Made by a program: the position numbers and the translations under genes
Shown: piece after piece, positions 4,219 through 18,613 of the stretch
Numbering within the stretch: the stretch's first letter is position 1
Layout of the letters: each line of letters begins with the position of its first letter
From: Oleidesulfovibrio alaskensis DSM 16109
Lineage (GTDB): Bacteria > Desulfobacterota > Desulfovibrionia > Desulfovibrionales > Desulfovibrionaceae
Direction of reading: 5' to 3'
Assembly: GCF_000482745.1 (NCBI RefSeq)
Contig: NZ_AXWQ01000013.1
Coordinates: forward strand, 51,279 to 75,278
Length of the DNA stretch: 24,000 nucleotides
Notes under the pieces: generated by a model
Databases searched by the model: none
The model's input: the letters and a program-made list of their open reading frames with translations, nothing else
Told to the model about the DNA's origin: nothing

Positions 4219-4391
4219 GATGCTTCCTTGGTGCGCTCTGCGAACAGAGCGCCGTTGGACGGGGCGGCGCGCCCCGCGGCTAAATATGTAAAAGGGCGAA
4301 CACCATGTCCGCCTGAAAAAATACCTGCTTCGGGCTCGCAGCGCCCGGGCGTTTTACGTACTTGCTAACCGGTACCGTGTCAAACGGCAAA

Positions 4392-4416
4392 GGCGGCGCA
4401 GAATCTCTGCGCCGCC
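4392..4416 (-). terminator. Stem-loop, probable terminator or attenuator between the DUF2156 gene and gltX
   Basis: Perfect 11-bp stem GGCGGCGCAGA/TCTGCGCCGCC with a 3-nt loop. On the minus strand it is followed by TTTGCCGTTTG, an imperfect T-tract. Confidence 0.4.
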
Positions 4417-4439
4417 GGTACAGCAGCGTTGACGCGCGC

Positions 4440-4526
4440 CGGCCAGATGCCGGCCAAATGCGGTCAGATGTCGGCCAGTTGTCGGCCAGATGCCAGACAG
4501 ACGCCGGACAGCGCCCGGTCCGTCAC
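4440..4526. repeat. About 8 degenerate tandem copies of an 11-bp unit (consensus CGGCCAGATGC)
   Basis: Read directly: cggccagatgc / cggccaaatgc / ggtcagatgt / cggccagttgt / cggccagatgc / cagacagacgc / cggacagcgcc / cggtccgtcac. The array starts at the stop codon of the DUF2156 gene. Confidence 0.7.
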
Positions 4527-5404
4527 AACACAGTGACGGTGCTTTTGCGCAGCCAGTCCGCAGGGTGATAAGTCAGTTTTGCCTTACGCAGACCCTCGTC
4601 GCCCAGATCCTGCTCGCGGTTCACATATGTATATCCTGTGCCCTCATGCTCAACAAAAATCTGATTGATTGCCTGATACACCCCGCGATACTCCGAACGC
4701 GCCTTTTCAAAATGCACCACCAGAGTATCGTCTGTCAGTGCTTCGCCCACGGTATAGGCCACCATCACATCATTGACATACAGCGCACCGCCCTTCAATC
4801 CGGGTATGGTGTCCCAGTATTCCAGCACACGGATGACCGCTTCATTTTCCGCCAGCAGGGTTTCCGACTCTTCGCATTCACGCGAAAGACACCATTCCTG
4901 CTGCAGCTGCAGCACGGCTTCTATGCAATCAGCCGTCATGGGATGGTACTGCCAGTCATACTGCTTCTTGAACTGATTCACATGGTTCTTTTTTTTATGG
5001 TACTTGTTGCCCGAAAGCGTAGCCAGCTTTTCCGCGTCGTACAGATAGTCCCACTGATCGCGGTCCTCCTGCACCTGCACGCCGTCGCCCAGCGCCGCCT
5101 GCCACAGGTCGGCAAGCTGCTGCGGTACGCGTATAAAGGTTCTGCCCGCCGTCATCATGGGGCATTTTGCCCAGTCGGCCACGGCGTTCCAGTCACCCAC
5201 GGGCGCCCAGTAACCCACTTCCGGTCTGGTCTGGCGTATCCAGAAAAGATTGGGCGTGCGGCCCACTTCCAGCCCGTATTCGTTGGCCCAGCCCCACAGA
5301 TTGGTAAAACTGTAATCAGAAGCCCGCGACGGTGTGCCGGAGAAAAGAGTCAGATACTCTTCCATCACGTCCATGGTCAAAGGTTTAAATTCCACTGCGC
5401 ACAT
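4523..5404 (-). CDS. DUF2156 / MprF C-terminal-like (aminoacyl-tRNA-dependent transferase fold) protein
   Basis: 293 aa. The EFKPLTMDV...YSFTNLWGW...YHKKKNHVNQFKK pattern resembles stand-alone DUF2156 proteins as I remember them. AAGGAG RBS 9 nt upstream of the ATG at 5404, inside the 3' end of the MATE gene. Confidence 0.6.
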   Translation of the reverse strand: MCAVEFKPLTMDVMEEYLTLFSGTPSRASDYSFTNLWGWANEYGLEVGRTPNLFWIRQTRPEVGYWAPVGDWNAVADWAKCPMMTAGRTFIRVPQQLADLWQAALGDGVQVQEDRDQWDYLYDAEKLATLSGNKYHKKKNHVNQFKKQYDWQYHPMTADCIEAVLQLQQEWCLSRECEESETLLAENEAVIRVLEYWDTIPGLKGGALYVNDVMVAYTVGEALTDDTLVVHFEKARSEYRGVYQAINQIFVEHEGTGYTYVNREQDLGDEGLRKAKLTYHPADWLRKSTVTVL

Positions 5405-6872
5405 TGCTTTTCACTCCTTCAAGAGCCGCCCCTGCAGGCGTCTCCGTGGTGTTCTTTCTGTTGCCGTTGCGCTTGATCATGCTGAAACGGCTCCAGTCGT
5501 GGTACCAGAACAGCCAGAGCATGGTACCGGACTGGAATATCTGTGAAATCAGCATGGCTACAAACACACCTTCGGAGTTCCCCCACACATGGTGCCCCAT
5601 GACATAGGCCACCGGCAGCCGCACCAGCCATGTGGCGGAACTGTACACAATAAAGGTGTACAGCGTGGCGCCGGCGCCGGTCATTATGCCGCCCAGCGTC
5701 ATGCTGGCCACGGTGAAGGGAATGGATACAAGATTATATTTCAGATACACGGCCGCCTGCGCCTGCACCGCCGGTTGCGGCGACAGAAAAGCGCAGATTT
5801 CCGGCACAAAAGGCCACATGAAAACAGCAACCACCGTTAACGACCCGCAGGCCATCAGCAGAAGACGCAGCCCCACGCGTTTGGCCTCGGCCTTGCGCCC
5901 GGCCCCCAGAAAATGCCCGACCAGAATACTGGCTGTCATATTAAAAGCGAACGCAGGCAGAAACAGCAGAGATTCTATGCGCATGCCTGCCGTCATACCG
6001 GCCAGCGCATCAATGCTGCCCGCAGGCAGCGAGCCGGTAATGGCAAACAATACCAGATACCCGGTCTGCCACATTATCTGCATGCCGCCTGCCGGAAGCG
6101 CCACCTTGATAAGATACGGTGCCGCACAGCGGGCCCAGCGCCACGGAGCGCCGGAGTCGCGCCGCAGCAGGCCTTTTCTGACCAGCATCACCATGTTGAA
6201 CAGCGCACCGGCCGTAATGGAATAGAATGTGGCCCATGCCACACCGGCATAGCCCATCTGCGGAAAGCCCCACCAGCCCAGCCCCAGACCAAAATCCGCC
6301 ACGGTGTTCACCAGACTGACAATCATCATGCAGCCCAGAGGAATCAGCACCATTTTGCGGGCGCGGAACATGGCATTGGTCATGTTGAGCATGTAGTACA
6401 TGGGCAGCACATACAGATACACGTCAAAAAAATACGACGTGATGGGGCGGATGCGTTCCGGCACCTGCAGCAGGTTGAGAAACGGCTCCTTGAACAGCAT
6501 GCCGCAGACCAGCACAACCAGACTCATGACAACGCCCAGCTTGATGACCAGCGCCACATAGCGCCGCGCGCGCCTGTACAGTCCGGCCCCGGCGGACTGA
6601 CCTATGGCCGCCACGGAAGCATTGGCCACGGCTATACCCACCACCATCAGAAAAAAAAGACACTGCGTGATGATACCCAGCGATGCCTGTACATCCTGAT
6701 GAATTTTGCCTGCCACCCACACATCCACAAAACCGATGATGAAATGAAAAAACATCATCATCATCTGCGGCCATGTAAGGCTGAAAATGGCGGTATCGGA
6801 ACCGGAATCCGGTTCGGGCGCAGCGGCGCCTGCCCGCGCCGCCTGCATGGTTCGGGTACTATCCGACGACAT
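5385..6872 (-). CDS. MATE-family (MOP superfamily) efflux transporter/flippase-like membrane protein
   Basis: About 12 hydrophobic segments and a length and composition typical of MATE/NorM. The start is uncertain: GTG 6917, ATG 6872 (AAGGCAGG RBS, chosen) or ATG 6848. Confidence 0.75.
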   Translation of the reverse strand: MSSDSTRTMQAARAGAAAPEPDSGSDTAIFSLTWPQMMMMFFHFIIGFVDVWVAGKIHQDVQASLGIITQCLFFLMVVGIAVANASVAAIGQSAGAGLYRRARRYVALVIKLGVVMSLVVLVCGMLFKEPFLNLLQVPERIRPITSYFFDVYLYVLPMYYMLNMTNAMFRARKMVLIPLGCMMIVSLVNTVADFGLGLGWWGFPQMGYAGVAWATFYSITAGALFNMVMLVRKGLLRRDSGAPWRWARCAAPYLIKVALPAGGMQIMWQTGYLVLFAITGSLPAGSIDALAGMTAGMRIESLLFLPAFAFNMTASILVGHFLGAGRKAEAKRVGLRLLLMACGSLTVVAVFMWPFVPEICAFLSPQPAVQAQAAVYLKYNLVSIPFTVASMTLGGIMTGAGATLYTFIVYSSATWLVRLPVAYVMGHHVWGNSEGVFVAMLISQIFQSGTMLWLFWYHDWSRFSMIKRNGNRKNTTETPAGAALEGVKSNVRSGI

Positions 6873-7008
6873 ATATGAACCTGCCTTGCAGGGTAATGCA
6901 GAACCTGCTGATTTCACAGAATTCTGCCACCGGTTAACTGAAAACAGCCTGAAAGTATGCCTCAGCGGAAAAAACGGGTCAACGCACCGGAAAGTAACTG
7001 TGGCTTGA

Positions 7009-7048
7009 TCTCTTTGTACGCATTATGTACAAAATATGTACAAAGAGA
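7009..7048. promoter_or_regulatory. Composite operator-like element: 11-bp perfect inverted repeat plus a TATGTACAAA direct repeat
   Basis: TCTCTTTGTAC (7009-7019) and GTACAAAGAGA (7038-7048) are exact reverse complements. TATGTACAAA occurs at 7024-7033 and 7035-7044, an 11-bp period. The element is an AT-rich island 26 nt upstream of the ATG at 7074. Confidence 0.45.
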
Positions 7049-7073
7049 CCTCACCCGTTTCACAGGAGGCACC

Positions 7074-7406
7074 ATGCACATATTCAAAAACGAAAAAGAA
7101 ACAAAACGCGTCATCTTCAACATTGATTCCGGCCTTGCCCTGCGGCTGGAAAGAGCAAGACACCGGGCAAGAAAACTTTCCCGCAAGCTTAATGTCGACG
7201 AAGCCGTGGACCATGCACTGGAAGCTTTTCTGGCCGAAGCGGAGCACAGGCTGGACGCGCTGGCGCAGAAAAAAAACGCCGCACCCGCCGCACAGGGCCC
7301 CATCATAATGGGTCCTGCGGCAGCCGAAGAAGACAGCCGGGGCGACACTTCGGCCGTGGTGCTGCGCAAAAGCATGGTGCCGGAACAACGGAACAGACAA
7401 CGCTGA
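7074..7406 (+). CDS. Hypothetical small protein, possible ribbon-helix-helix DNA-binding protein
   Basis: AGGAGG RBS 5 nt upstream. The N-terminus KRVIFNIDSGLALRLERARHRA fits the strand-helix pattern of RHH (CopG/Arc-like) proteins. The C-terminus is low complexity. The start is trimmed from 6957. Confidence 0.5.
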   Translation: MHIFKNEKETKRVIFNIDSGLALRLERARHRARKLSRKLNVDEAVDHALEAFLAEAEHRLDALAQKKNAAPAAQGPIIMGPAAAEEDSRGDTSAVVLRKSMVPEQRNRQR

Positions 7407-7595
7407 CGTAAGAGTAAGTCTCCGCTGCCGCATGGCAACACCCTGACCGCACACCCGTTGCACGAAATCATTCCCCGCGGCACCGGCTCGGGACGAAACG
7501 GCAATGACGGACTGCCCGCAGCCTGAAAACCCGCAGAAAAAAGCTGACAGCCCGCAGGTACGGCGCGGCGTACAGCCAAGTACACGCGCCGTGCT

Positions 7596-7635
7596 CCTGC
7601 CCTCAACCGGCAGCAGGATGCCGGTTGAGGGCAGG
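7596..7635. other. Perfect 16-bp stem / 8-nt loop hairpin in a 358-bp non-coding gap
   Basis: CCTGCCCTCAACCGGC (7596-7611) and GCCGGTTGAGGGCAGG (7620-7635) are exact reverse complements. There is no flanking T-tract on either strand. Confidence 0.6.
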
Positions 7636-7711
7636 ACCGTGACACACGCGGAAAGCCGGAGCTTTCCGGCCAGTCTGATGCTCCGGCGCTGCCGCACGCG
7701 GACAGCCAAAC

Positions 7712-7734
7712 AAAAAAGCGCACCAGAGGTGCGC
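7712..7734 (-). terminator. Rho-independent terminator of birA
   Basis: On the minus strand: GCGCACC-TCT-GGTGCGC followed by TTTTTT, about 30 nt after the birA stop. Confidence 0.65.
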
Positions 7735-7764
7735 CCCGTGCCGGTCCTGAAGCCGTAAAAACAA

Positions 7765-8796
7765 TCAGCCGTCCAGAATGTCTCCCGCCGGCAGACGGTG
7801 AACAGTGCCGCTCTCATCTTCCAGCAGCAGCCAGCCGTTGTCATCCACATCGCGGACTTTTCCCGTCAGCACGGCATCCCCCCTGCCCAGCCGTATACTG
7901 CTGCCGGTTATGCCCGCCAGCTGCTTCCACCGGGCCACCACCGCGGCACCGCCGCCGCTGCGGAACAGTTCATAAGCTTCTTCCAGCGCTTCAAGAACCG
8001 CGCGGGCCACTCCCGCACGGGGCAACTGCGGCTGCTCCGTACCGTGGTGCGCCTCAAGCGCCCCGCGCAGCGAAACAGCCCGCATACCATCCCTCTCCAG
8101 CTCGGAACAGACGGTATTCACGTTGATGCCTATGCCCGCAACGGCATAGTCCAGCGCATCGACAACCAGTCCTGCTTCAATAAGCACACCGCTCAGCTTG
8201 CGGCCATGCACAAGCACATCGTTGGGCCATTTGGGCATTGCAGGCAGACCCGTAAGCCCGCGCACCGCCCCCACCACGGCAACCACAGTCATCAGGGTCA
8301 GCACGGGCACCTGCTGCGGGGCGCACTGCGGGCGCAGCACCACAGACATATACACCCCCCCGCGGGGCGAAAGCCATGTCCGGCCCTGCCGCCCGCGCCC
8401 CGCCGTCTGGCAGTCGGCCAGCACCACAGACCCTTCTGGTGCTCCGCGCTCCGCCAGCACCCGGGCCTCCATGTTGGTTGACGGCACGGACTCCATGTGC
8501 AGCACCGTGCCCCGCCCCAAAAGCCGGGTTCCCAGACCGTGGCATACCGCTGCAGGATGCAGGCTGTCCGCATCGCCTCCCAGCCGGTACCCCCGCCTGG
8601 TCATGGCCTCCACAGGGTACCCTGCGTCGCGGATAAGCCGCATGTGCTTGGAAACGGCAGCACGCGACATTCCCAGAATCCGGCTCAGTTCCTCACCGGA
8701 AACCCAGTTGCCGTCATGCTTTCGCAGCACTTCCAGTATGGCACCGCGTACAGCGCCGCCTTTTCCCTGTTCCTGAAAAGCCAATTGTAAACCCAT
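7765..8796 (-). CDS. birA: Bifunctional biotin--[acetyl-CoA-carboxylase] ligase / biotin operon repressor
   Basis: N-terminal winged HTH (GEELSRILGMSRAAVSKHMRLIRDAGY) and the GRGRQGRTW biotin-binding loop. There is no obvious SD before the ATG at 8796, so the exact start is somewhat uncertain. Confidence 0.9.
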   Translation of the reverse strand: MGLQLAFQEQGKGGAVRGAILEVLRKHDGNWVSGEELSRILGMSRAAVSKHMRLIRDAGYPVEAMTRRGYRLGGDADSLHPAAVCHGLGTRLLGRGTVLHMESVPSTNMEARVLAERGAPEGSVVLADCQTAGRGRQGRTWLSPRGGVYMSVVLRPQCAPQQVPVLTLMTVVAVVGAVRGLTGLPAMPKWPNDVLVHGRKLSGVLIEAGLVVDALDYAVAGIGINVNTVCSELERDGMRAVSLRGALEAHHGTEQPQLPRAGVARAVLEALEEAYELFRSGGGAAVVARWKQLAGITGSSIRLGRGDAVLTGKVRDVDDNGWLLLEDESGTVHRLPAGDILDG

Positions 8797-8817
8797 TTGA
8801 ACTTAAAAAGTTGACAA
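8785..8817. promoter_or_regulatory. Candidate BirA operator (bioO-like): TTGTAAACC-N15-AGTTGACAA
   Basis: The left half matches the E. coli bioO half-site TTGTAAACC 9/9. The right half matches GGTTTACAA 7/9. It lies in the divergent birA/bioB region, overlaps birA codons 1-4, and contains a TTGACA hexamer. Confidence 0.55.
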
Positions 8818-8904
8818 TAAGCCGTCACGCAGGCTAGGAGTCGGCCGTTGACCGCGCCGGGCGGTCTTTCCTGACATGCTGCCACGCTGCAAGGATACAC
8901 GCCC

Positions 8905-9879
8905 ATGACCATAAACCCTGACGACCTGTGCCGCCGCATTATGGCGGACCCTGAAGCCTGTGCCACGGAAGATGAGGCACTGCGGCTTCTGGAACTGCCC
9001 GCCGAGCAGACTCTGCCGCTTATCGCCTGTGCCCAGCGCATACGCACGGCACATGCCGGACCGGCGTTCACCTGTGCCATTGTCAACGCCCGTTCCGGAC
9101 GCTGCCCCGAAAACTGTTCATTCTGCGCACAGTCGGCCCATTATGCCACAGGTGCGCCCGAACACCCCATGCTGAACACCGCCGCACTGGTGGAGCACGC
9201 CCTGAAGCTGGCCGACGCCGGTGCGGACAGATTCGGCATTGTGACCAGCGGCACACGCCCCGCCCCCCGCGAACTGGAAACAGTATGCGAAGCCGTGGTC
9301 CGCATACGGGCGCGCACGCACCTTTCGCCCTGCGCATCACTGGGCCAGCTCAGCCCGCAGGCAGCTGCAATGCTGCGGCAGGCGGGACTGGAGCGCTACC
9401 ACCATAATCTGGAAACCGCACGCAGTTTCTTTGCATCGGTATGCACAACGCATGACTACGACGAAGACATATATACCGTCAAACTGGCGCGCGAGGCCGG
9501 ACTGGCTGTGTGCTGCGGAGGCATACTGGGGCTGGGCGAAAGCCGCGCGCAACGGGCGGAGCTTTCCGGTCAGATAAAACGGTGCAGGGCAGATTCGGTG
9601 CCGGTCAACCTGCTGACCCCTGTGGCAGGCACGCCGCTGGAGCGCATGGATCCGCTGCCGCCGTTTGAAGCGCTGCGCACCATAGCCGTATTCAGATTCA
9701 TGCATCCGCAGGCCGACATACTGGTGGCCGGAGGCCGCGAACATGTGCTGGGCGAATACCGTTCGTGGACATTCATCAGCGGCGCCAACGGGCTGATGGT
9801 GGGCAATTATCTGACAACCGCGGGCCGCAGCACCGCTGACGACTACACCATGCTGCGCCATATGGGAGTACTCCGATGA
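8905..9879 (+). CDS. bioB: Biotin synthase (radical SAM)
   Basis: CPENCSFCAQS radical-SAM CxxxCxxC motif, with length and overall pattern typical of BioB. Confidence 0.95.
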   Translation: MTINPDDLCRRIMADPEACATEDEALRLLELPAEQTLPLIACAQRIRTAHAGPAFTCAIVNARSGRCPENCSFCAQSAHYATGAPEHPMLNTAALVEHALKLADAGADRFGIVTSGTRPAPRELETVCEAVVRIRARTHLSPCASLGQLSPQAAAMLRQAGLERYHHNLETARSFFASVCTTHDYDEDIYTVKLAREAGLAVCCGGILGLGESRAQRAELSGQIKRCRADSVPVNLLTPVAGTPLERMDPLPPFEALRTIAVFRFMHPQADILVAGGREHVLGEYRSWTFISGANGLMVGNYLTTAGRSTADDYTMLRHMGVLR

Positions 9880-11255
9880 ACGCACTTCAACCCGACACGG
9901 AACGGCTGCGCGCACTGGACGCGGCCCATGTATGGCACCCCTTCACCCAGATGGCGACGTGGCACGAAGACGCGCCGCTGATAATCGAAAAAGCCCGCGG
10001 CAACTGGCTGGTGGATACCGACGGCAACCGCTATCTGGACGGGGTTTCTTCGCTGTGGACCAACGTGCACGGCCACAGACACCCGCATATTGATGCGGCC
10101 ATACGCGCCCAGCTGGACAACGTGGCACATTCCACGCTGCTGGGTCTATCGAGCCGCCCTGCCATTGAGCTTGCGGCCATGCTGGCCCGGATAGCCCCGC
10201 AGGGACTGAACCGCGTCTTCTATTCCGACAGCGGCTCCACTGCGGTGGAAGTGGCGCTGAAGATAGCCTACCAGTACCAGAAGCAACGCGGCCCCGCCGG
10301 AGAAGGTCGCAGCAAGTTTTTATGCCTGCGGGGAGCGTACCACGGCGACACCGTGGGGGCCGTTTCGCTGGGCGGCATAGACCTGTTTCATGCCGTGTAC
10401 GGCGGGCTGCTGTTTGAAACCGTACGGGCCGAGGCACCGTACTGCTACCGGTGCCCCTTCGGCCGGCAGAAAGAATCATGCCGCCACGAGTGCTTCACCC
10501 ATCTGGAAGAAACGGCCACACGCCACGCGCCGGAACTGGCCGCCATGGTCATAGAGCCGCTGGTTCAGGGTGCCGCCGGTCAGATAACACACCCCGACGG
10601 TTATCTGGCCCACGCCCGCGCCCTGTGCGACAGGCTCGGTATTCTGCTTATCGCCGACGAAGTGGCCGTGGGTTTCGGCAAAACCGGAACCATGTTTGCC
10701 TGCGAACAGGAAAAAGTGGCTCCCGACCTGCTGTGTCTGGCCAAAGGCATTTCCGGCGGATATCTGCCGCTGGCAGCCACCATGGTGACCGACGCCGTAT
10801 ACGAGGCTTTTTTGGGCGACCACGCGCAATGCCGCACGTTTTTCCACGGGCACACCTATACCGGTAATGCGCTGGCATGTGCCGCAGGCATAGCCAGCCT
10901 GCAGCTTTTCCGCACCGAAAGCACACTGGAGCGGCTGCAGCATATCATCACCATATACGATGCACTGCTGCGGCAGCTGGAAACACTGCCCCATGTGGGC
11001 GATATCCGCCGCAGGGGCATCATGACCGGCATAGAGCTGGTGGAAGACCGCGCCACACGCCGTCCGTATCCTTTTGCCCTGCGCACCGCGCACAAGGTGG
11101 TGCTGGCAGCACGCAGGAGAGGAGTTATCATCCGGCCGCTGGGCGACGTGCTGGTGCTCATGCCGCCCCTGAGCATCACCGCGCAGGAGTGCGGCCTGCT
11201 GGTCGAAGCCACGGCGGAAGCCATACAGGAAGTGACCGGAGGCCCCCGTGTCTGA
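9876..11255 (+). CDS. bioA: Adenosylmethionine-8-amino-7-oxononanoate aminotransferase
   Basis: Class-III aminotransferase with DEVAVGFGKTG (PLP lysine). N-terminus WHPFTQM. ATGA overlap with the bioB stop. Confidence 0.95.
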   Translation: MNALQPDTERLRALDAAHVWHPFTQMATWHEDAPLIIEKARGNWLVDTDGNRYLDGVSSLWTNVHGHRHPHIDAAIRAQLDNVAHSTLLGLSSRPAIELAAMLARIAPQGLNRVFYSDSGSTAVEVALKIAYQYQKQRGPAGEGRSKFLCLRGAYHGDTVGAVSLGGIDLFHAVYGGLLFETVRAEAPYCYRCPFGRQKESCRHECFTHLEETATRHAPELAAMVIEPLVQGAAGQITHPDGYLAHARALCDRLGILLIADEVAVGFGKTGTMFACEQEKVAPDLLCLAKGISGGYLPLAATMVTDAVYEAFLGDHAQCRTFFHGHTYTGNALACAAGIASLQLFRTESTLERLQHIITIYDALLRQLETLPHVGDIRRRGIMTGIELVEDRATRRPYPFALRTAHKVVLAARRRGVIIRPLGDVLVLMPPLSITAQECGLLVEATAEAIQEVTGGPRV

Positions 11256-11703
11256 AAAAAATATGCCTGAAAAAACTGTGTCTGAGCGGGACGGGGAAAG
11301 TTCGGACGCCCCCCGTGATACCGCCATGTCCGGCGCGCAAAAACACCCCGCAGAAAAAATGGGCCGGAAAAGCTCCGCGGCTGTTCCCGCCGCCCGTACC
11401 GCTTCCGTCTTCTGCTGTTTTCCTGCGGATGATCCTGTCTACGCAGAGCATTTTCCCGGTGCGCCCTGTGTGCCCGGCTCGCTGCTCATGCAGGCGTTTA
11501 TCCGCGCCGCGGAACAGATGACCGGCCCTGCACCGGACGCGGGACAATGGACATTCACGGGGGTACGCTTCCGGAAGTTTGTGCCGCCCGGCACTCACGT
11601 CTGCACGGTCAGCGCAGTCACGGACGGCAGCGGCAGCGCATACCGGTGCACCCTGCTTGTGGACGGCGTCGCCGCCGTCACAGGAACCATACAATGCGCC
11701 TAA
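11248..11703 (+). CDS. FabZ-like 3-hydroxyacyl-ACP dehydratase homolog (hotdog fold), atypical
   Basis: DDPVYAEHFPGAPCVPGSLLMQAF aligns with E. coli FabZ [24 protein letters not shown], and VRFRKFVPPG aligns with ARFKRPVVPG. The start is uncertain: GTG 11248 (overlapping the bioA stop), ATG 11263, or a later Met. The first ~45 residues are low complexity. Confidence 0.7.
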   Translation: MSEKNMPEKTVSERDGESSDAPRDTAMSGAQKHPAEKMGRKSSAAVPAARTASVFCCFPADDPVYAEHFPGAPCVPGSLLMQAFIRAAEQMTGPAPDAGQWTFTGVRFRKFVPPGTHVCTVSAVTDGSGSAYRCTLLVDGVAAVTGTIQCA

Positions 11704-12449
11704 GCCATACCCGCGGATGTGTACTGGTGGCGGGCGGCGGCAGCGCGCTGGGCACCGCTTCGGCCACGCTGCTGGCCCGTGCGGGCGTACCGCTGTGCCT
11801 GACGGCAGGCAGCGCAGAGGCAGCCGCCCGCATACACAACGCTTTCAGCGCAGCGCACCTATCCTGCCCGCCGGTACTCATCGTGCGCATGGAAGACACA
11901 GCCCGCGCCGATGCCCTGCCGGAACAGGCGGCAGCAGCCGCAGGCATGCCCGCGGCATATCTGCTGGACCTGATGCATACGGATCATGAAAGCCTGCTGG
12001 CATCGGCATCACCGGACACAATCAGCGCATACATAGAAGCCAATATAACATGGCGTGCCCGTCTGGTGCGTGCGGTCAGCCGCCATATGCTGCACCGCCG
12101 CTGCGGCCGCATGGTTTTTGTCTCGTCAACGGCTGCGGCGCTGCCCGCCGCCGGACAGGGACTGTATGCCGCGGCAAAACTGGCTGCCGAAGCCCTGTAC
12201 CGCAGCACCGGTACAGAACTGGCCGCACGGGGCATCACAACATGCTCGCTGCGTCTCGGATATGTGGCTGCAGGGCGCGGAGCCCGCTATCTGAAGCAGC
12301 ATCCGGACCTGCTGCAGCGCATTCCGCTGCAACGGGCGGTGGACGTGCACGAGGCTGCCGGAGCACTGGCGTTCCTTCTCAGCGACGAAGCCGCCGCCAT
12401 CAACGCCACCGCCATCACCATGGACGGCGGTCTGACCGCCTGCAAATAA
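11694..12449 (+). CDS. SDR-family 3-oxoacyl-ACP reductase (FabG-like)
   Basis: Gly-rich NAD(P) loop VLVAGGGSALG, catalytic Ser (VFVSSTAA) and YAAAK (YxxxK), and C-terminus MDGGL. The ATG at 11694 overlaps the preceding stop by 10 nt. The start is trimmed from 11547. Confidence 0.8.
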   Translation: MRLSHTRGCVLVAGGGSALGTASATLLARAGVPLCLTAGSAEAAARIHNAFSAAHLSCPPVLIVRMEDTARADALPEQAAAAAGMPAAYLLDLMHTDHESLLASASPDTISAYIEANITWRARLVRAVSRHMLHRRCGRMVFVSSTAAALPAAGQGLYAAAKLAAEALYRSTGTELAARGITTCSLRLGYVAAGRGARYLKQHPDLLQRIPLQRAVDVHEAAGALAFLLSDEAAAINATAITMDGGLTACK

Positions 12450-12463
12450 AAGGAGACCACAGC

Positions 12464-12886
12464 ATGACTCAGCAGACCGCCCCCTGCGCCGTGACAGAAC
12501 GGGTCATCGGCATCATCGCGGAAGTTCTCGATATTCCGCCGCACACCATCACTCCGGAAACCCGCGTATTACGCGATCTTGAAACCGAATCCATCGATCT
12601 GCTCGAATTCGGCGTGGGGCTCAATGCGGCATTCGGCATACCGGTCGCCGACGACACGGTGTTTCTCACCTCACTGCGCGTGCACCTTGAAGAAGCCCGG
12701 CATGCAGATGCTGACCCGTACAAAATGATGGCAGGACGGTATCCTCACCTGAGCTGCGACCGCGTGGCCTGCATACTCCGCACACTGGATGATGGGCCCG
12801 TGCTGAGCGTACAGGATATTGCGGATTACGTGCTGCACGCCCTGCGCGCCGGACAGCATGAAAAGGCTCCGAGCCATGCAGGCTGA
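12464..12886 (+). CDS. Acyl carrier protein with a ~60-aa C-terminal extension
   Basis: LRDLETESIDLLEF resembles the ACP DSLD phosphopantetheine-attachment motif (Ser in ESID). AAGGAG RBS 7 nt upstream. 140 aa against about 78 aa for a canonical ACP. The start is trimmed from 12050. Confidence 0.75.
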   Translation: MTQQTAPCAVTERVIGIIAEVLDIPPHTITPETRVLRDLETESIDLLEFGVGLNAAFGIPVADDTVFLTSLRVHLEEARHADADPYKMMAGRYPHLSCDRVACILRTLDDGPVLSVQDIADYVLHALRAGQHEKAPSHAG

Positions 12887-14186
12887 ACGCAGGGTGGTCA
12901 TCACCGGCGCCGGTGCCGTCACCCCGCTGGGGCATACACCGCAGGACATCCGGCAGTCGGTGATGACCGGCCGCACCGTATTTGAACCTACTTCCGTGCC
13001 GGCGGGGTATGCACAGGCACCGGCGCAGTTCGATGCCGACGATGCACTGCGGGGCTGGCGGCACCGGCGCTATCTTAACCGCGGTGCGGCCATGGCCGTG
13101 CATGCCGCACGTCAGGCTGCCGGTGCTGCCGGTTTTGCTGCGGGTCTGCCCGGATACTGCGGAATATTCGCCGGAAGCGGTCCGCATCTGGATATGGACA
13201 GCGACTACGCACAGCCGCAGCATCTTCCGCAACGGCATGATACGCTTTGTGCCTTATGGATGCTGCGCTATCTGCCCAACACGGCAGCTTCGGCCATCAG
13301 CCAGTTGCTGGGCGCCCGCGGCGAAAGTCTGGTGACCGGTACTGCCTGCGCGGCCTCGCTGCAGGCAGTGGGAGAGGCCTTCCGCCGCATCCGCCACGGG
13401 GTACTGCCTGTGGCGCTGGCCGGCGGAGGCGATTCGCGCCTGTCATACGGCGGCCTTTTGGCCTATGCCAAGGCGGGCGCACTGGCTCCGTGTTCTGAAG
13501 ACACTCATGCCGCAGCAGCAGCGGCATGCAGGCCCTTTGACACCGGTCGGCAGGGATTTGCCGCAGGTGAAGGAGCCGCTTTTTTTGTACTGGAATCGCT
13601 GGACCATGCGCAAAAACGCGGCGCTGTTCCGCTGGCTGAAGTATGCGGATACGGCTGCAGCATGGACGGCCACGCCATGACCGCACCGCACCCGCAGGGC
13701 ATGCACGCGGAACAGGCTGTCAGAACCGCTCTGCACGAAGCAGGGGCCGGACCGGCCGATGTGACCGCCGTCTGTGCACACGGTACGGGCACGCTGCGCA
13801 ACGACACCGCCGAATCAGTCATGCTCACGCGGCTTTTTGCCCCGACCGGACACCGGCCGCCGGTTCTTGCCCTCAAATCATGGACAGGACACTGCGCCTC
13901 TGCCTGCGGTGCCGTGGAACTGGCCGTACTGCTGGCCTGTGCCCGGCACGGTTTTCTGCCCCCCGTGCGCAACCTGCAGGCTCCGCTGTGCGACAGTCTC
14001 TCGTTTGTCCGCCGCATTCAGCCGTGCACCGCTGCAGAGCTGTACGCTGCCGGACGTCCGGAAAAGCTTTCCGCCCTGACGCTTCTGCAGAGCTTCGGGT
14101 TCGGCGGCCAGAACGCCGCGCTGGCGGTACGTCCCTTCCGCGCATCAACCGCCGCGGCAATACAGGATGACAATATACCGGCATGA
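12876..14186 (+). CDS. Beta-ketoacyl-ACP synthase, KAS I/II type (Cys-His-His)
   Basis: RRVVITGAGAVTPLG; active-site Cys in GTACAAS; His in CAHGTGT; Lys/His in LKSWTGH; C-terminus SFGFGGQNAAL. The start is ATG 12876 (11-nt overlap with the ACP stop) or ATG 12858. Confidence 0.85.
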   Translation: MQAERRVVITGAGAVTPLGHTPQDIRQSVMTGRTVFEPTSVPAGYAQAPAQFDADDALRGWRHRRYLNRGAAMAVHAARQAAGAAGFAAGLPGYCGIFAGSGPHLDMDSDYAQPQHLPQRHDTLCALWMLRYLPNTAASAISQLLGARGESLVTGTACAASLQAVGEAFRRIRHGVLPVALAGGGDSRLSYGGLLAYAKAGALAPCSEDTHAAAAAACRPFDTGRQGFAAGEGAAFFVLESLDHAQKRGAVPLAEVCGYGCSMDGHAMTAPHPQGMHAEQAVRTALHEAGAGPADVTAVCAHGTGTLRNDTAESVMLTRLFAPTGHRPPVLALKSWTGHCASACGAVELAVLLACARHGFLPPVRNLQAPLCDSLSFVRRIQPCTAAELYAAGRPEKLSALTLLQSFGFGGQNAALAVRPFRASTAAAIQDDNIPA

Positions 14187-14692
14187 AACATAAAAACACT
14201 ATCACGCTGCGCTGCAACGCCGCTCCGGCGCCGGAAACGCTCCATACGCCGGCCACGGCCCTGTTCGTTGTACCCGCCGCGGTAAGTGCGGTCTGCAGCA
14301 GCAGCATACGGGGGACAGTACGCGGGGGCGGGCATTCCGGCGAGCCATGGTTCATGACTGAAGCACTGGCCCAGTTTGCCGCGCTGCACACCCGCTGGCT
14401 GTGCGGTTTTTCCTGCCACGCATTTCTGCTCTCGGTACGGCGCATGCCCCATATACGCCTTTCTGCCGCCGACCTGCCCGCAGGGGCAACCGCACCGGTG
14501 CATGTGCTGCTGACATCACGCACCGGTTCGGACAGCAGGCACGCATTTGAATACACCGTGCAAATGCAGCTGGGTGCCCGCACCGTGCAGGGAATACTGC
14601 TTACCGGCACCCTGCCCTATGACGACAGATTTTCAGCTGACCGGCTGCAGAAGCGTTACAGGGAGCTTTTCGCATGGCTTACGCGGCATTGA
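14183..14692 (+). CDS. Hypothetical protein, possible divergent hotdog-fold partner of the FabZ-like protein
   Basis: ATGA overlap with the KAS stop and a 19-nt overlap with bioF. The only recognisable element is FMTEALAQFAAL, resembling the FabZ central-helix motif LEAMAQ. The fold assignment is a guess. Confidence 0.45.
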   Translation: MKHKNTITLRCNAAPAPETLHTPATALFVVPAAVSAVCSSSIRGTVRGGGHSGEPWFMTEALAQFAALHTRWLCGFSCHAFLLSVRRMPHIRLSAADLPAGATAPVHVLLTSRTGSDSRHAFEYTVQMQLGARTVQGILLTGTLPYDDRFSADRLQKRYRELFAWLTRH

Positions 14693-15831
14693 ACGCGCGG
14701 TTGCGGGCACTGACGGCCGCAGGACTGTACCGCAGACGCATCTGTCAGGAATCCCGTCAGGGAAAATGGGTGACCGTGGACGGCAGGCAACTGTTGAATT
14801 TTGCCTCAAACGACTATCTGGGACTGGCAGCGGATACAGACTGGCAGGCTCAGGTGGCCCGCTGCTTTGCACAGCATCCCCCGTCCGCCTCTGCTTCGGC
14901 TCTGGCGGGGGGGCACTCGCGCACCATCAGGGCCGCCGAAGAATCACTTGCCGAATATTTCGGCTATGCGGAATGCGTGCTGCTGCCCAGCGGTTATCAG
15001 GCCAATCTGGCCCTGCTGCAGGCGCTGGCCTTTTGCGGCGATACAGTGCTGTACGACAAACGCATCCATGCCAGCACTGCAGCAGCCGTACGCGCCGGTG
15101 CCGCAACGCCCTGCGGTTTCCGCCACAACGATACACGGCACCTTGCCCGCAGGCTGGAAAAAACGGACAAGCCGGACAGTACGGGCACAAAAGTTATTCT
15201 GGTGGAATCGCTGTACAGTATGGACGGCGACAGTCCGGACTTTGCCGCACTGCACCGGATCAAGGAACGGCATAACGCCATACTGGTGGCAGACGAGGCG
15301 CACGCCTTCGGCGTGCTGGGCACAGAAGGCAGAGGGCTGGCAACCGGCAGTGCCGACATGGCTGTGGGCACGCTGGGAAAAGCGCTGGGACTGTTCGGTG
15401 CATTCATTCTGCTGCCGCGCGGCGGAACAGAATTGCTGTGCAATCTGGCGTCGCCCTTCATTCACTCCACGGCACTGCCCGACGCGCACGCCGCATGCGC
15501 GGCCATGCTGCCCCGGCGCATTGCACGCATGGAGGAACAACGCGACCGTGTGGCCCGGCTGAGCCGTCTCATGCGGACGGAACTGCAGGGGCTGGGGCTG
15601 CCTGTGCACGGCACAGCGCACATCATCACGCTGGAAACAGGCGACGAAGCACTGACAAGCCGGACAGCTGCCGCGCTGCGGCAGCACGGTATTCTGGCAC
15701 TGGCGGCACGGCACCCCACCGTGCCCGCACGAAGAGCCGTCATACGTCTGGGCATGACGGCTCTGCATTCGGCCCGCGACGTAGAGGTATGCGTGCGGAG
15801 CCTTACGACGATCCTGCGAGGTATTGTATGA
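14674..15831 (+). CDS. bioF: 8-amino-7-oxononanoate synthase
   Basis: N-terminus LYRRR...NFASNDYLGL, and PLP lysine in GTLGKALG. Alpha-oxoamine synthase family within a bio context. Confidence 0.9.
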   Translation: MAYAALNARLRALTAAGLYRRRICQESRQGKWVTVDGRQLLNFASNDYLGLAADTDWQAQVARCFAQHPPSASASALAGGHSRTIRAAEESLAEYFGYAECVLLPSGYQANLALLQALAFCGDTVLYDKRIHASTAAAVRAGAATPCGFRHNDTRHLARRLEKTDKPDSTGTKVILVESLYSMDGDSPDFAALHRIKERHNAILVADEAHAFGVLGTEGRGLATGSADMAVGTLGKALGLFGAFILLPRGGTELLCNLASPFIHSTALPDAHAACAAMLPRRIARMEEQRDRVARLSRLMRTELQGLGLPVHGTAHIITLETGDEALTSRTAAALRQHGILALAARHPTVPARRAVIRLGMTALHSARDVEVCVRSLTTILRGIV

Positions 15832-16544
15832 ATCATCGTGAACCGATGCCCCTGCACCTGTTTGTCACAGGAACGGACACCGGTGCGGGAAAAACCGTGG
15901 TCAGCCTGCTGCTGCTTAAAGTTCTGCACGGGCGCGGGCACATGCCCCGTTACTTCAAACCGCTGCAGACCGGCTGTATTTCTCCCTCGGATGCGGACAG
16001 TGACGCCCGTTTCATCCATAACTATCATGAGCCGCTGCGGAACATTGCGCCGGAACATTCCACGGGGCTGTGCTTCAAGTCTCCCAAGGCTCCGCTCTAT
16101 GCCGCACGCGACGAAGGCCGCGGCATAGAGGCGGAAACCGTCTTGCGCAGGCTGGCATCCCTGCGCAGGGAAAAGGCGCCCCTCGTGGCGGAAGGAGCAG
16201 GCGGGCTGCTGGTACCGGTAACCCCGCACGCCACCGTTATCGATATTATCGAACAGTCGGGCATGCGGCCCGTACTGGTGGCCCGCACGGGGCTGGGCAC
16301 CATCAACCATACGCTCCTTTCACTGGAGGTGCTCAGGCTGCGGAACATAAAACCGGCAGGGATTGTGTTTGTCGAGGCAAGGGATGAACCCACGCCCGCA
16401 GCCATGATTCAGGAAAACATGGACGCCGTGTCCGCATTTTCCGGAATATCCGTCAGCGGCGTTGTGCCGCATATTTCTGATTTTCATTCACCGCCCCCGC
16501 AGGCTCTGGCCGTCGTGGAGCGGCTTGTGGACGGGATGCTTTAG
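15828..16544 (+). CDS. bioD: Dethiobiotin synthase
   Basis: LFVTGTDTGAGKTVVS P-loop typical of BioD. ATGA overlap with the bioF stop. The start is trimmed from 15438. Confidence 0.9.
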   Translation: MNHREPMPLHLFVTGTDTGAGKTVVSLLLLKVLHGRGHMPRYFKPLQTGCISPSDADSDARFIHNYHEPLRNIAPEHSTGLCFKSPKAPLYAARDEGRGIEAETVLRRLASLRREKAPLVAEGAGGLLVPVTPHATVIDIIEQSGMRPVLVARTGLGTINHTLLSLEVLRLRNIKPAGIVFVEARDEPTPAAMIQENMDAVSAFSGISVSGVVPHISDFHSPPPQALAVVERLVDGML

Positions 16545-17845
16545 CCCCGTCCGCCTGCCACCCGCACAGACCCGCCGGTCTTTTCCGCATGCTCCGGAAA
16601 GCAGGCCAGCAGGTCGTCCAGAGTTTCGCGGCGGCGGATAAGCCGGTCGCGGCCGTCTTTGTCCACCAGCACTTCGGCCGGACGCAGACGCTGATTGTAG
16701 CTGGAACTCATGGCAAAACCGTAGGCTCCGGCATCCAGCATGGCGATGATGTCGCCTTCCTGTATCTCGGGCAGGTCGCGGGCGGCAGCCATGATATCGC
16801 CTGATTCGCAGATATTGCCCACGATGGTCTGCTGCATGGTTTCCTGCTGCGGAACACCGTCTTCGCGGTATATCTCCACATCATGAAAAGCGTCGTACAT
16901 GACCGGACGCTGCAGAACGTTGAACCCGAGATCTGTACCGGCAAAGCGGCGTTCGCCGTTGTTTTTGACGGCATGCACGGTACCCAGTACCACGCCGCAC
17001 TCAGCGGTCACATAGCGGCCCGGCTCGATCATAAAGCGTCCGTTGTATCCCGTGCGTTCCGCCCATCTGCCGATGCAGTCATCCAGCATGCGGCCCGTGG
17101 CTTCCATGTCCAGCCGGGGCTGTTTTTCATATTTGCGGTACGGAATGCCGAATCCTCCGCCGAAGTCGATGACCTCCAGCGAATCCCACTGTTCCGCCTC
17201 GCGCAGAAGAAACTCCACGGCTTCCAAGTAGCTGTCCGGCTCCATGAACAGCGAACCGATGTGCTGGTTAAGCCCTGCAAGAGTCAGGTTGTGCCGCTTG
17301 AGAATGCGGCGCACGGCATCGCCGTCGTCCGGCCCTATGCCGAATTTCGTTTCCTTGCCGCCGGTGACAACCTTTTTGTGGTGTCCCGCGCCGATGCCTG
17401 GATTGATGCGGATCATCACCTTGCCGCCGGGGTTCACCTGCCCCAGCAGATCAAGCTGCGACAGAGAGTCCACGCTGACCAGCAGACCGTGATCGACAGC
17501 ATTGCGCAGTTCTTCGGCAGAAACGTTGTTGCAGACGTAGGTTATTTCGTCGGGCGTGAATCCCGCCGCAAGATGCATGGCGATTTCGCCGGGAGACATG
17601 GCATCCACCACCAGTCCTTCGGAACGGATAATGCGCAGCAGCGAAAGATTGGCATTGGCCTTGGCCGAATAATTGACCCGGAACCCCGGATGACTGCTCA
17701 ACCCTTTCAATTCGCGGCATCTGCGGCGCAGTACGTTTTCATTATACACGTACAGCGGGCTGCCATAGGTTTCCACCAGCTCCATGGGTGTGGAAAGCCC
17801 GTAAAAATCCAGTTCATCTGTCACGGCGGAACGAACGTTCGACAT
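16541..17845 (-). CDS. lysA: Diaminopimelate decarboxylase
   Basis: Fold-III PLP decarboxylase: YSAKANANLSLL (PLP Lys), DFGGGFGIPY, EPGRY, and GNICESGD typical of LysA. Confidence 0.85.
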   Translation of the reverse strand: MSNVRSAVTDELDFYGLSTPMELVETYGSPLYVYNENVLRRRCRELKGLSSHPGFRVNYSAKANANLSLLRIIRSEGLVVDAMSPGEIAMHLAAGFTPDEITYVCNNVSAEELRNAVDHGLLVSVDSLSQLDLLGQVNPGGKVMIRINPGIGAGHHKKVVTGGKETKFGIGPDDGDAVRRILKRHNLTLAGLNQHIGSLFMEPDSYLEAVEFLLREAEQWDSLEVIDFGGGFGIPYRKYEKQPRLDMEATGRMLDDCIGRWAERTGYNGRFMIEPGRYVTAECGVVLGTVHAVKNNGERRFAGTDLGFNVLQRPVMYDAFHDVEIYREDGVPQQETMQQTIVGNICESGDIMAAARDLPEIQEGDIIAMLDAGAYGFAMSSSYNQRLRPAEVLVDKDGRDRLIRRRETLDDLLACFPEHAEKTGGSVRVAGGRG

Positions 17846-18588
17846 TATTTCCCCCTTGTGGGACTCTCCTCCGGTTCTGCACCGCTCATGCCGGACCGGA
17901 TCTTGATAAGTTCAATTTCATTCAGCAGCGCCTCGCGCATCAGATACACCAGATGCTCGTTGGCGGAGTACAGACACTGCCCTGTTCTGGCGGCCTGATC
18001 CACCACGCCGGTAATCACTTCGCGCGTGTCGGCAATAAGCTTGATATGCCCCGTACCCGCGGCATTATGCATAAAAATGGCTCCGGAAATCTGCGGGTCG
18101 GCATCCGACAGAATAACCACCTTGAGTCCGCGGGCGGCACAGGCGGCCATGTCTTCCTTCAGCTGCGCGGCATTGCCCGAATGCATCGAAATATACACGC
18201 GCAACTGCGCCAGACGCAGCATGTTGCGCACTTTATCCATGGTGTTCTGATACCCCGTCACCGTCAGGTAGGGCATTTCCACCGGCTGCTCTTCGGGCAG
18301 ATGCTGTTCGAGAAACTCCAGAGTCTCGTCACAGTGCCTGCGTATGGTGACCAGCAGCTCCTTGCGGGGTGTGGGCACATACTTGCTGGTGTCGTCGCTG
18401 GCCACCACGGCCCCGCCCTTTTCCACCAGACTGGATAACGCCGCATATGCGTTGGAACGCGATATGCCCGCCAGCTTTGCCGCCTCATATCCTGTAAGCG
18501 CACCGTGCCTGCACAGCGTCACGTACATGATGGATTCCTGCTGGGTAAACCCGAACCGCTTAAGAGCCTTTATGATTTCGCTATCCAT
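17845..18588 (-). CDS. TrmB-family transcriptional regulator
   Basis: N-terminal HTH FGFTQQESIMYVTLCRHGALTGYEAAKLAGISRSNAYAALSSLVEKG. ATG 18588 (AGGAA RBS) is preferred over the upstream GTG at 18603. Its stop overlaps the lysA ATG (TAATG). Confidence 0.75.
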   Translation of the reverse strand: MDSEIIKALKRFGFTQQESIMYVTLCRHGALTGYEAAKLAGISRSNAYAALSSLVEKGGAVVASDDTSKYVPTPRKELLVTIRRHCDETLEFLEQHLPEEQPVEMPYLTVTGYQNTMDKVRNMLRLAQLRVYISMHSGNAAQLKEDMAACAARGLKVVILSDADPQISGAIFMHNAAGTGHIKLIADTREVITGVVDQAARTGQCLYSANEHLVYLMREALLNEIELIKIRSGMSGAEPEESPTRGK

Positions 18589-18613
18589 GCAATTTCCTGC
18601 CACGCCTAACGTG

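Follow-up and report, generated by a model that had tools for sequence, protein, structure and literature searches.

The extended biotin operon and its relatives

The stretch analysed here, called the window throughout, covers 24 kb of Oleidesulfovibrio alaskensis and carries an extended biotin (bio) operon. Open reading frame (ORF) calls and direct reading of the sequence gave the same order, namely birA, a BirA operator, and then bioB-bioA-hotdog1-SDR-ACP-KS-hotdog2-bioF-bioD (Table 1). Five genes that resemble parts of a fatty acid synthase (FAS) thus lie between bioBA and bioFD. They encode a short-chain dehydrogenase/reductase (SDR), an acyl carrier protein (ACP), a ketosynthase (KS), and two proteins that we refer to as hotdog1 and hotdog2. 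Most likely, these five genes build the pimeloyl precursor of biotin on a carrier protein of their own. Domains were assigned with Pfam and with the equivalog cut-offs of NCBIfam. The profile searches proposed in an earlier note on this DNA, made from the sequence alone, matched FabA, adh_short, PP-binding, and ketoacyl-synt N/C, and gave no match for the fifth protein, the 169-residue product of the hotdog2 gene.

Table 1 Features of the bio locus (positions are those of the window)
Feature	Position	Strand	Evidence and remarks
birA, bifunctional biotin-protein ligase/repressor	7765..8796	-	Pfam HTH_11 8.9e-14, BPL_LplA_LipB 1e-21, BPL_C 1.3e-7; divergent from bio operon
BirA operator, TTGTAAACC-N15-AGTTGACAA	8785..8817	.	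120 nt 5′ of bioB ATG; covers first 12 nt of birA coding sequence
bioB, biotin synthase	8905..9879	+	TIGR00433, 386 bits (above cut-off 225); Radical_SAM and BATS domains
bioA, adenosylmethionine-8-amino-7-oxononanoate transaminase	9876..11255	+	TIGR00508, 538 bits (above cut-off 405); ATGA overlap with bioB
hotdog1, short FabZ/ApeI-like subunit	11248..11703	+	Pfam FabA 5e-6; catalytic His68 (HFPG), Gln82 at the FabZ Glu position
SDR, FabG-like 3-oxoacyl-ACP reductase paralogue	11694..12449	+	adh_short_C2 ~4e-23 (3.7e-23); Ser145/Tyr158/Lys162
ACP, dedicated, 140 aa	12464..12886	+	PP-binding 1.7e-8; Ser43 in ESID; ~36-aa insertion before last helix
KS, FabF/FabB-type elongating ketosynthase	12876..14186	+	ketoacyl-synt N 1e-29, C 1.5e-25; Cys158/His302/His339
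hotdog2 (169-aa "orphan"), predicted hotdog-fold subunit	14183..14692	+	AlphaFold2 model; invariant Glu60 on central helix, without catalytic His
bioF, 8-amino-7-oxononanoate synthase, pimeloyl-thioester consumer	14674..15831	+	TIGR00858 best, 8.7e-87, 291 bits (below equivalog cut-off 426); Aminotran_1_2
bioD, dethiobiotin synthase, last operon gene	15828..16544	+	TIGR00347, 134 bits (above cut-off 83); ATGA overlap with bioF

The nine genes are arranged as a single unit (8905-16544), as the earlier note had held. From bioB to bioD, the successive junctions are -4, -8, -10, +14, -11, -4, -19, and -4 nucleotides (nt), the -19 being the overlap of hotdog2 and bioF; all eight values listed in that note were reproduced by the ORF coordinates. 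The 14-nt gap before the ACP gene holds an AAGGAG ribosome-binding site, located 8 nt 5′ of its ATG. A promoter and terminator consensus scan inside the operon returned no signal above shuffled expectation, and the GC content at third codon positions (GC3) is uniform over all operon genes (0.65-0.73). A terminator-like hairpin follows the birA stop codon (7737-7715). Recent horizontal insertion of the five FAS-like genes was also considered and was rejected, as the operon genes and those flanking them have uniform GC and GC3.

Gene calls on near-identical contigs match those of the window, and the starts of two genes call for a remark. The hotdog1 gene opens with a GTG at 11248 that has a GGAGG 7 nt upstream, and its 8-nt overlap with bioA hinges on this codon. 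The first ~48 residues (window 11248-11390) are of low complexity and show no conservation among orthologues, the sister Oleidesulfovibrio locus (L006) included; there, the gene calls resume only 215 nt after bioA. In other loci the orthologues measure 94-104 residues, the JGI annotation holds a 125-residue version, and the conserved core starts near residue 49. The true start of hotdog1, and with it the overlap, is thus uncertain. For the KS gene, 12858 is an alternative start in place of 12876.

The operon lies behind a BirA site. The consensus TTGTAAACC-N15-GGTTTACAA had a single match in the window (8785-8817, with 2 mismatches) and none in 100 shuffled sequences. The same string occupies the same position in Desulfovibrio desulfuricans G20, now O. 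alaskensis, for which Table 1 of Rodionov et al. 2004 gives TTGTAAACC-[N15]-aGTTgACAA at -119 of bioB (PMC545781). This bears out the bioO-like site that the earlier note had placed ahead of the unit. The start codon of birA (8796-8794 on the reverse strand) falls within the operator. Since the operator lies on the translation start of birA as well as 5′ of bioB, autoregulation by BirA is implied. BirA with biotinoyl-AMP would repress both divergent promoters at this site, and derepression would yield the four ring-assembly enzymes together with a private elongation system.

We compared ten loci, seven of which belong to other taxa and were retrieved through hotdog2 alone, blind to neighbouring genes. 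Besides another Oleidesulfovibrio, the contigs obtained by way of hotdog2 represent Syntrophobacteraceae, Desulfobacteraceae, Syntrophales, and further metagenome lineages, so that the linkage extends to other Desulfobacterota and across phyla. In all ten, KS, hotdog2, and bioF follow one another in that order with bioF directly 3′ of hotdog2, usually with an overlap between these two genes, and ACP lies 5′ of KS. The hotdog1 gene is present wherever the contig reaches far enough, and the SDR gene is present everywhere except in L014, which reads bioA-hotdog1-ACP-nitroreductase-KS-hotdog2-bioF-bioD (6363-12212). A nitroreductase gene stands between ACP and KS in four distant clusters (L009 8128-8802, L010 1107-1739, L012 8154-8804, and L014 8284-8874); among the main window ORFs scanned, there was no nitroreductase match. 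No BioC-like methyltransferase or BioH-like hydrolase was called next to the module in the ten loci.

The L011 locus departs from this arrangement in several respects. A radical-SAM/SPASM gene (5799-7082) stands between SDR and ACP, and no nitroreductase is found. An FtsJ/S4 (TlyA-like) methyltransferase gene (3763-4575) overlaps the start of hotdog1 by 4 nt, and bioD, bioA, and bioB are not adjacent to the module.

Ketosynthase, reductase and carrier protein

Four of the five module proteins (hotdog1, SDR, ACP, and KS) score far below the NCBIfam equivalog cut-offs of their housekeeping counterparts, indicating that they are divergent paralogues. The catalytic residues of the SDR, ACP, and KS are in place, and the motifs named in the earlier note (Ser and YxxxK in the SDR, ESID in the ACP, and Cys-His-His in the KS) were recovered by residue-level alignment. 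The best NCBIfam models for the SDR are those of FabG (102 bits against a cut-off of 222). It displays the FabG-type catalytic triad and a Gly-rich GGGSALG motif, which are kept in its orthologues.

The carrier protein is an unusual one. Its Ser43, within T-E-S-I-D, aligns with the DSL of AcpP and with the corresponding position of 2kw2, as expected of a PP-binding protein, and it reaches 35 bits against the AcpP equivalog (cut-off 70). The closest solved relative is 2kw2, an AcpXL-type "specialized acyl carrier protein" (5.6e-8). Both this protein and the window ACP are dedicated carriers, longer than the ~78-residue housekeeping AcpP, but their similarity is confined to helices I-II around the serine. 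Their cargoes would also differ, being very-long-chain fatty acids in AcpXL and, as proposed here, C3-C7 diacids in the bio-cluster ACP. By alignment, an insertion of ~36 residues before the last helix is common to all ten orthologues and is not present in E. coli AcpP; 2kw2 has no detected counterpart of it. In the window ACP the insertion falls within residues ~66-125, and the bio-cluster ACPs (orthologues in L006 and L008-L014) are 115-154 residues long. The consensus of the insertion reads FL..LR.HL...YP.LS..R...IL..L..GP...V.D...Y.

The KS belongs to the FabF/FabB type. Alignment to FabF 1ox0 identified, next to the Cys-His-His residues, Lys334 and Phe409 of a GFGG motif. Its score against the fabF model TIGR03150 (253 bits, cut-off 494) points to a divergent paralogue, not to the housekeeping enzyme. 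Neither is it a KAS III of the BioZ type, as the ketoacyl-synt N/C and FabF models match and the second catalytic residue is a histidine. The KS family also displays the conserved basic motifs RYLNRG (near residue 70), LR[YF]LPN (near residue 130), and GDSRL (near residue 185), which are not known from E. coli FabF. They could serve as contacts for ACP docking or for the substrate carboxylate, and we do not count them as a sign of carboxylate binding.

The type of KS bears directly on the choice of primer. As the product is an odd-numbered dicarboxylate, its omega-carboxylate must come from the primer, which leaves just two simple options, two rounds from malonyl or a single round from glutaryl. 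The second option, which was already among the alternatives of the earlier note, would have the KS perform one elongation of a glutaryl unit. This is the natural logic of BioZ, the alpha-proteobacterial KAS III that condenses glutaryl-CoA with malonyl-ACP into 3-ketopimeloyl-ACP (PMC7645780, PMC8024396), and it would avoid malonyl acylation of the KS. The resemblance to BioZ extends to a biotin-dedicated ketosynthase that makes the C7 skeleton on an ACP by condensation with malonyl-ACP. However, BioZ is a FabH-like enzyme that takes its glutaryl-CoA primer from lysine catabolism and borrows FAS II for the steps of its single reduction cycle. The window KS is of the Cys-His-His type, whereas KAS III enzymes are Cys-His-Asn and primed by acyl-CoA, and it comes with its own ketoreductase, dehydratase, and ACP, plus a reductase in relatives, a set that fits iteration. 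Moreover, the cluster encodes nothing that could load glutarate (acyl-ACP synthetase, acyltransferase, or CoA ligase), and the same holds for nine of the ten loci; in the remaining one, L011, an AMP-binding gene lies ~9 kb downstream, cut at the locus end. Glutaryl priming is therefore unlikely. We favour malonyl as the primer because this KS type uses ACP-bound primers, the cluster has no glutarate-loading enzyme, and a complete private cycle fits iteration.

The two hotdog proteins and the FabZ dyad

The active site of FabZ is formed between the two chains of the dimer, where His54 of one meets Glu68′ of the other (PMC10054515). Aligned with E. coli FabZ 6n3p and with 4i83, the hotdog1 protein shows an intact H-F-P-G-x-P-x-x-P-G motif, and its His68 falls on His54 of the E. 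coli enzyme. The column of Glu68 is taken by Gln82, so that the glutamate of a homodimeric FabZ is missing. Across nine loci, the histidine is invariant, Q, G, H, or N stands in place of the Glu, and no acidic residue is invariant anywhere in the family. The protein scores 28 bits against the FabZ equivalog (cut-off 113). The family profile matches FabZ at 9e-7 and, weakly, ApeI (6qsr_A, 0.82), and the orthologues bear the precomputed Pfam label PF22818, ApeI-like.

The hotdog2 gene encodes the protein that the earlier note had described as an orphan. This ORF corresponds to WP_027181836.1, annotated as "hypothetical protein", with Dde_2661 as its orthologue in G20 and DORF42491 in D. vulgaris. 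Regarding profiles, the description stands, as neither Pfam nor NCBIfam has a match; a hotdog fold is, however, now predicted for it. A phmmer search over 1.84 billion representatives retrieved ~110 distant relatives at 50% clustering, of ~150 residues each, none of which had a Pfam match. A search of genome contigs with hotdog2 peptides gave only two weak matches, in Arthrobacter/Paenarthrobacter (L001 and L002, with 31-34% identity over 74 residues). The family shares the invariant motif E-A-x-A-Q...H-x-R...F-x-x-H-A-F-L-L followed by a C-terminal Y-D...H-Y-R helix.

An AlphaFold2 model of hotdog2 built from 60 homologues (predicted local distance difference test 79, predicted template modelling score 0.77) has two strands ahead of a central helix of 17 residues, then four long strands and a helix at the C-terminus, which amounts to a hotdog topology. 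Foldseek searches of the PDB with this model returned FabZ 4h4g first (3e-5), followed by chain B of the ApeI:P heterocomplex (6qsr_B, 3.8e-5). All eight sequence-level matches of the hotdog2 profile in the PDB are FabZ-type dehydratases (E 0.2-0.9), and these alignments place Glu60 of hotdog2 on the catalytic Glu of the V-E-A-L-A-Q helix. This glutamate is present in 60 of 60 homologues. The column of the FabZ histidine is Gly in 32 and Ala in 28, and never His, so hotdog2 has no complete FabZ dyad of its own.

Each family hence retains one half of the dyad and has lost the other in every sequence examined, a complementary loss that is most economically explained if the "DH" and "DH′" of the earlier note are two subunits of one enzyme. 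We depart from that note here, as it had counted them as separate dehydratases. As judged from the sequences, hotdog1 and hotdog2 are most likely an ApeI:ApeP-like heterodimer with one active site, in which the two chains would physically associate. ApeI/ApeP, from an aryl-polyene type II polyketide synthase (PKS), is described as a dehydratase heterodimer that has only one active site (PMC8041823), as opposed to the two of homodimeric FabZ. As in that system (6qsr), the cluster here encodes two distinct hotdog subunits with complementary dyad residues, one short and one longer; ApeI has 119 residues and the core of hotdog1 has about 95-105. The two subunits occur together in nine of nine loci that reach the hotdog1 position, L010 being cut off at its 5′ end. 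The pair also differs from ApeI:ApeP, with sequence identity of only ~14%, short dicarboxylic acyl chains instead of aryl polyenes as presumptive substrates, and a complex that is here a proposal.

Some of the evidence points the other way. The sequence link between hotdog2 and FabZ is weak (E ~0.2) and leans on the predicted fold. Comparison of the hotdog1 and hotdog2 profiles with hhalign gave no significant alignment (probability 0.7%); the relation between the two rests on the alignment of each family to FabZ and on the fold. In addition, hotdog thioesterases (HI1161, PA1618, and YhdA) score almost level with FabZ against the hotdog2 model in Foldseek (4e-5 to 1e-4), and hotdog2 displays further near-invariant residues (H69, R71, H79, and Y159). 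The two genes are also not adjacent.

These points would suit two independent homodimers, which might for instance divide the C5 and C7 rounds between them, or a hotdog2 that acts as a thioesterase or acyl-transfer factor. Homodimers are hard to reconcile with the missing half-dyads and with the lack of any invariant acidic residue in hotdog1. If hotdog2 were a thioesterase, its product would be free pimelate, and a BioW-type ligase would be required; the window has no such ligase, and bioW is missing from these genomes according to Rodionov et al. 2004 (PMC545781). Adding to this the alignment of all eight PDB sequence matches on the E-A-x-A-Q helix and the constant co-occurrence of both subunits, we regard this alternative as doubtful, no better placed than glutaryl priming, and retain the heterodimer.

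Two side observations concern hotdog2. Among its 60 homologues, Q64, R71, and Y159 are invariant besides Glu60, and H69 and H79 are near-invariant; carboxylate recognition, interface contacts, and a second catalytic function are candidate roles for these residues. In the other Oleidesulfovibrio (L006, 10001-10756) and in L011 (8950-9516), hotdog2 has 251 and 188 residues, respectively, because large stretches of low complexity are inserted into the loop that follows the first long strand; the hotdog core is otherwise kept.

A proposed route to pimeloyl-ACP

Bacterial biotin synthesis has a variable half, the supply of the pimelate moiety, which is partly unsolved. For the route of sulfate reducers and related anaerobes, the points at issue are the primer, the tolerance of FAS-type active sites for a free omega-carboxylate, and the enzyme that reduces the enoyl intermediate. 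We consider it probable that the nine genes are one BirA-repressed biotin operon whose middle five encode a miniature FAS that supplies BioF with pimeloyl-ACP.

In the scheme that we propose, the ACP would receive phosphopantetheine at Ser43 and malonyl from the housekeeping AcpS and FabD, the genes of which lie outside the window. The KS would take up a dicarboxylic acyl primer whose omega-carboxylate is free, in the simplest case malonyl, and would condense it with decarboxylating malonyl-ACP to give 3-oxoglutaryl-ACP. The SDR would reduce the 3-oxo group through its Ser145/Tyr158/Lys162 triad, and the hotdog1:hotdog2 heterodimer would dehydrate the product in a single active site made of hotdog1 His68 and hotdog2 Glu60. 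An enoyl reductase encoded outside the window would then saturate the double bond, the candidates being the nitroreductase-like flavoprotein implicated in D. vulgaris and the housekeeping FabI/FabK. A second round would lead to pimeloyl-ACP, from which BioF, BioA, BioD, and BioB would make biotin, with no methyl-ester disguise at any step. The primer, the number of rounds, the reductase, the control of chain length, and the acceptance of or preference for this ACP by BioF are components of the scheme that we infer. Taken jointly, a methyl-ester-free and malonyl-primed route on the insertion-bearing ACP, with a split-site dehydratase and, in the wider family, an enoyl-ACP reductase of the nitroreductase fold, is a proposition on which we see the chances as evenly balanced.

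This route shares with the BioC-BioH pathway of E. coli the use of FAS-type cycles of condensation, reduction, and dehydration that take a malonyl thioester to pimeloyl-ACP for BioF in two rounds. In E. coli, however, the omega-carboxylate is disguised as a methyl ester by BioC, the ester is removed by BioH, and the housekeeping FAS enzymes and AcpP do the work. In the Desulfovibrio-type module the enzymes and the ACP are private paralogues, and among the main ORFs scanned in the window there is no methyltransferase (BioC) and no alpha/beta-hydrolase (BioH). The same scan found no BioW, no P450 (BioI), and no KAS III (BioZ), in agreement with the absence of the known pimeloyl sources reported in the earlier note.

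The idea of a private, methyl-ester-free module, which that note had put forward, is supported by the domains and catalytic residues, by the linkage to bioF in ten of ten loci, and by the literature. It is also not new, and the statement there that comparative genomics had flagged such insertions in Desulfovibrio bio operons proved well founded. Rodionov et al. 2004 described the extended bio operon and its BirA site in G20, one of the two species concerned; they predicted a novel pimeloyl pathway for the five genes and recorded bioC/H/G/W as missing from Desulfovibrio genomes (PMC545781). Trotter et al. 2023 applied randomly barcoded transposon sequencing (RB-TnSeq) with avidin to D. vulgaris Hildenborough, and found that nine clustered genes (DVU2558-DVU2565 and the unannotated FabZ-like DORF42491) are specifically important without biotin, as is the unlinked nitroreductase-like DVU1220 (PMC10102598). 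The study also states that bioC and bioH are absent from D. vulgaris, notes a nitroreductase in the bio clusters of other genomes, and suggests it as a candidate enoyl reductase (PMC10102598). We found no literature on this pathway after that study. The operon and the pathway idea have been known in this species since 2004 and have been genetically supported in a relative since 2023.

The window is accordingly a clean copy of the published system, adding no new one. As in the Desulfovibrio-type operon, bioBA and bioFD flank five FAS-like genes in one unit, and the operator lies between the divergent birA and bioB. The gene order and the five genes agree with those of the G20 Dde_2661 region and of D. 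vulgaris (DVU2558-DVU2565 with DORF42491). Window proteins are exact or near-exact matches to O. alaskensis entries; G20 has identical ACP and BioB proteins (BioB = ABB39451), and the SDR is WP_027181835.1. With the BirA site and the neighbouring lysA and TrmB-type regulator also shared with G20, nothing substantive separates the window from the published operon, and it represents a strain-level variant. Neither the split catalytic dyad nor the ACP insertion is mentioned in the portions of the published work on this operon that we drew upon. The novelty that remains consists of the split-site dehydratase reading and the ACP insertion, both modest refinements. The analysis narrows the design of a reconstitution, in which hotdog1 and hotdog2 would count as a single enzyme, the private ACP would replace AcpP, and a nitroreductase-family partner would be added.

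That the five genes make some other lipid or polyketide and are merely housed in the bio operon is very improbable, for although the module proteins lie far under the housekeeping cut-offs and their matches recall components of type II PKS systems (ApeI-like, AmcF-like, and a PKS-type KS), they are translationally coupled to bioA and bioF behind a BirA operator, stay linked to bioF across distant taxa, and have D. vulgaris orthologues with a biotin-specific fitness defect (Trotter et al. 2023, PMC10102598).

Several considerations count against the private malonyl-primed pathway, beyond those raised for the hotdog pair. The window holds no enoyl reductase, malonyl transferase, or phosphopantetheinyl transferase. 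To our knowledge, malonyl acylation of a Cys-His-His KS without decarboxylation is unprecedented, and no feature of the sequence was found to account for it. The L014 cluster has no SDR, so ketoreduction there would be borrowed and the module is not always self-contained. The genetic evidence comes from D. vulgaris orthologues and not from O. alaskensis, and the biochemistry up to pimeloyl-ACP is still to be defined, as Trotter et al. 2023 state (PMC10102598).

Regarding enoyl reduction, the earlier note had listed this step among those missing from the module and concluded that they must be borrowed from the housekeeping FAS or be unnecessary. The absence of the enzyme from the window was upheld. 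Borrowing is not a necessary consequence, since a nitroreductase candidate has been published (DVU1220) and a nitroreductase lies within the cluster in relatives.

As for the remainder of the window, Rfam and tRNA scans of all 24 kb were empty. Convergent to bioD lies a gene pair on the reverse strand (16541-18603), comprising a diaminopimelate-decarboxylase-like lysA and a TrmB-type regulator; the stop codons of bioD and lysA overlap by 4 nt. This arrangement next to bioD is also kept in related contigs, and it corresponds to the lysX-lysA pair discussed for Desulfovibrio by Rodionov et al. 2004 (PMC545781).

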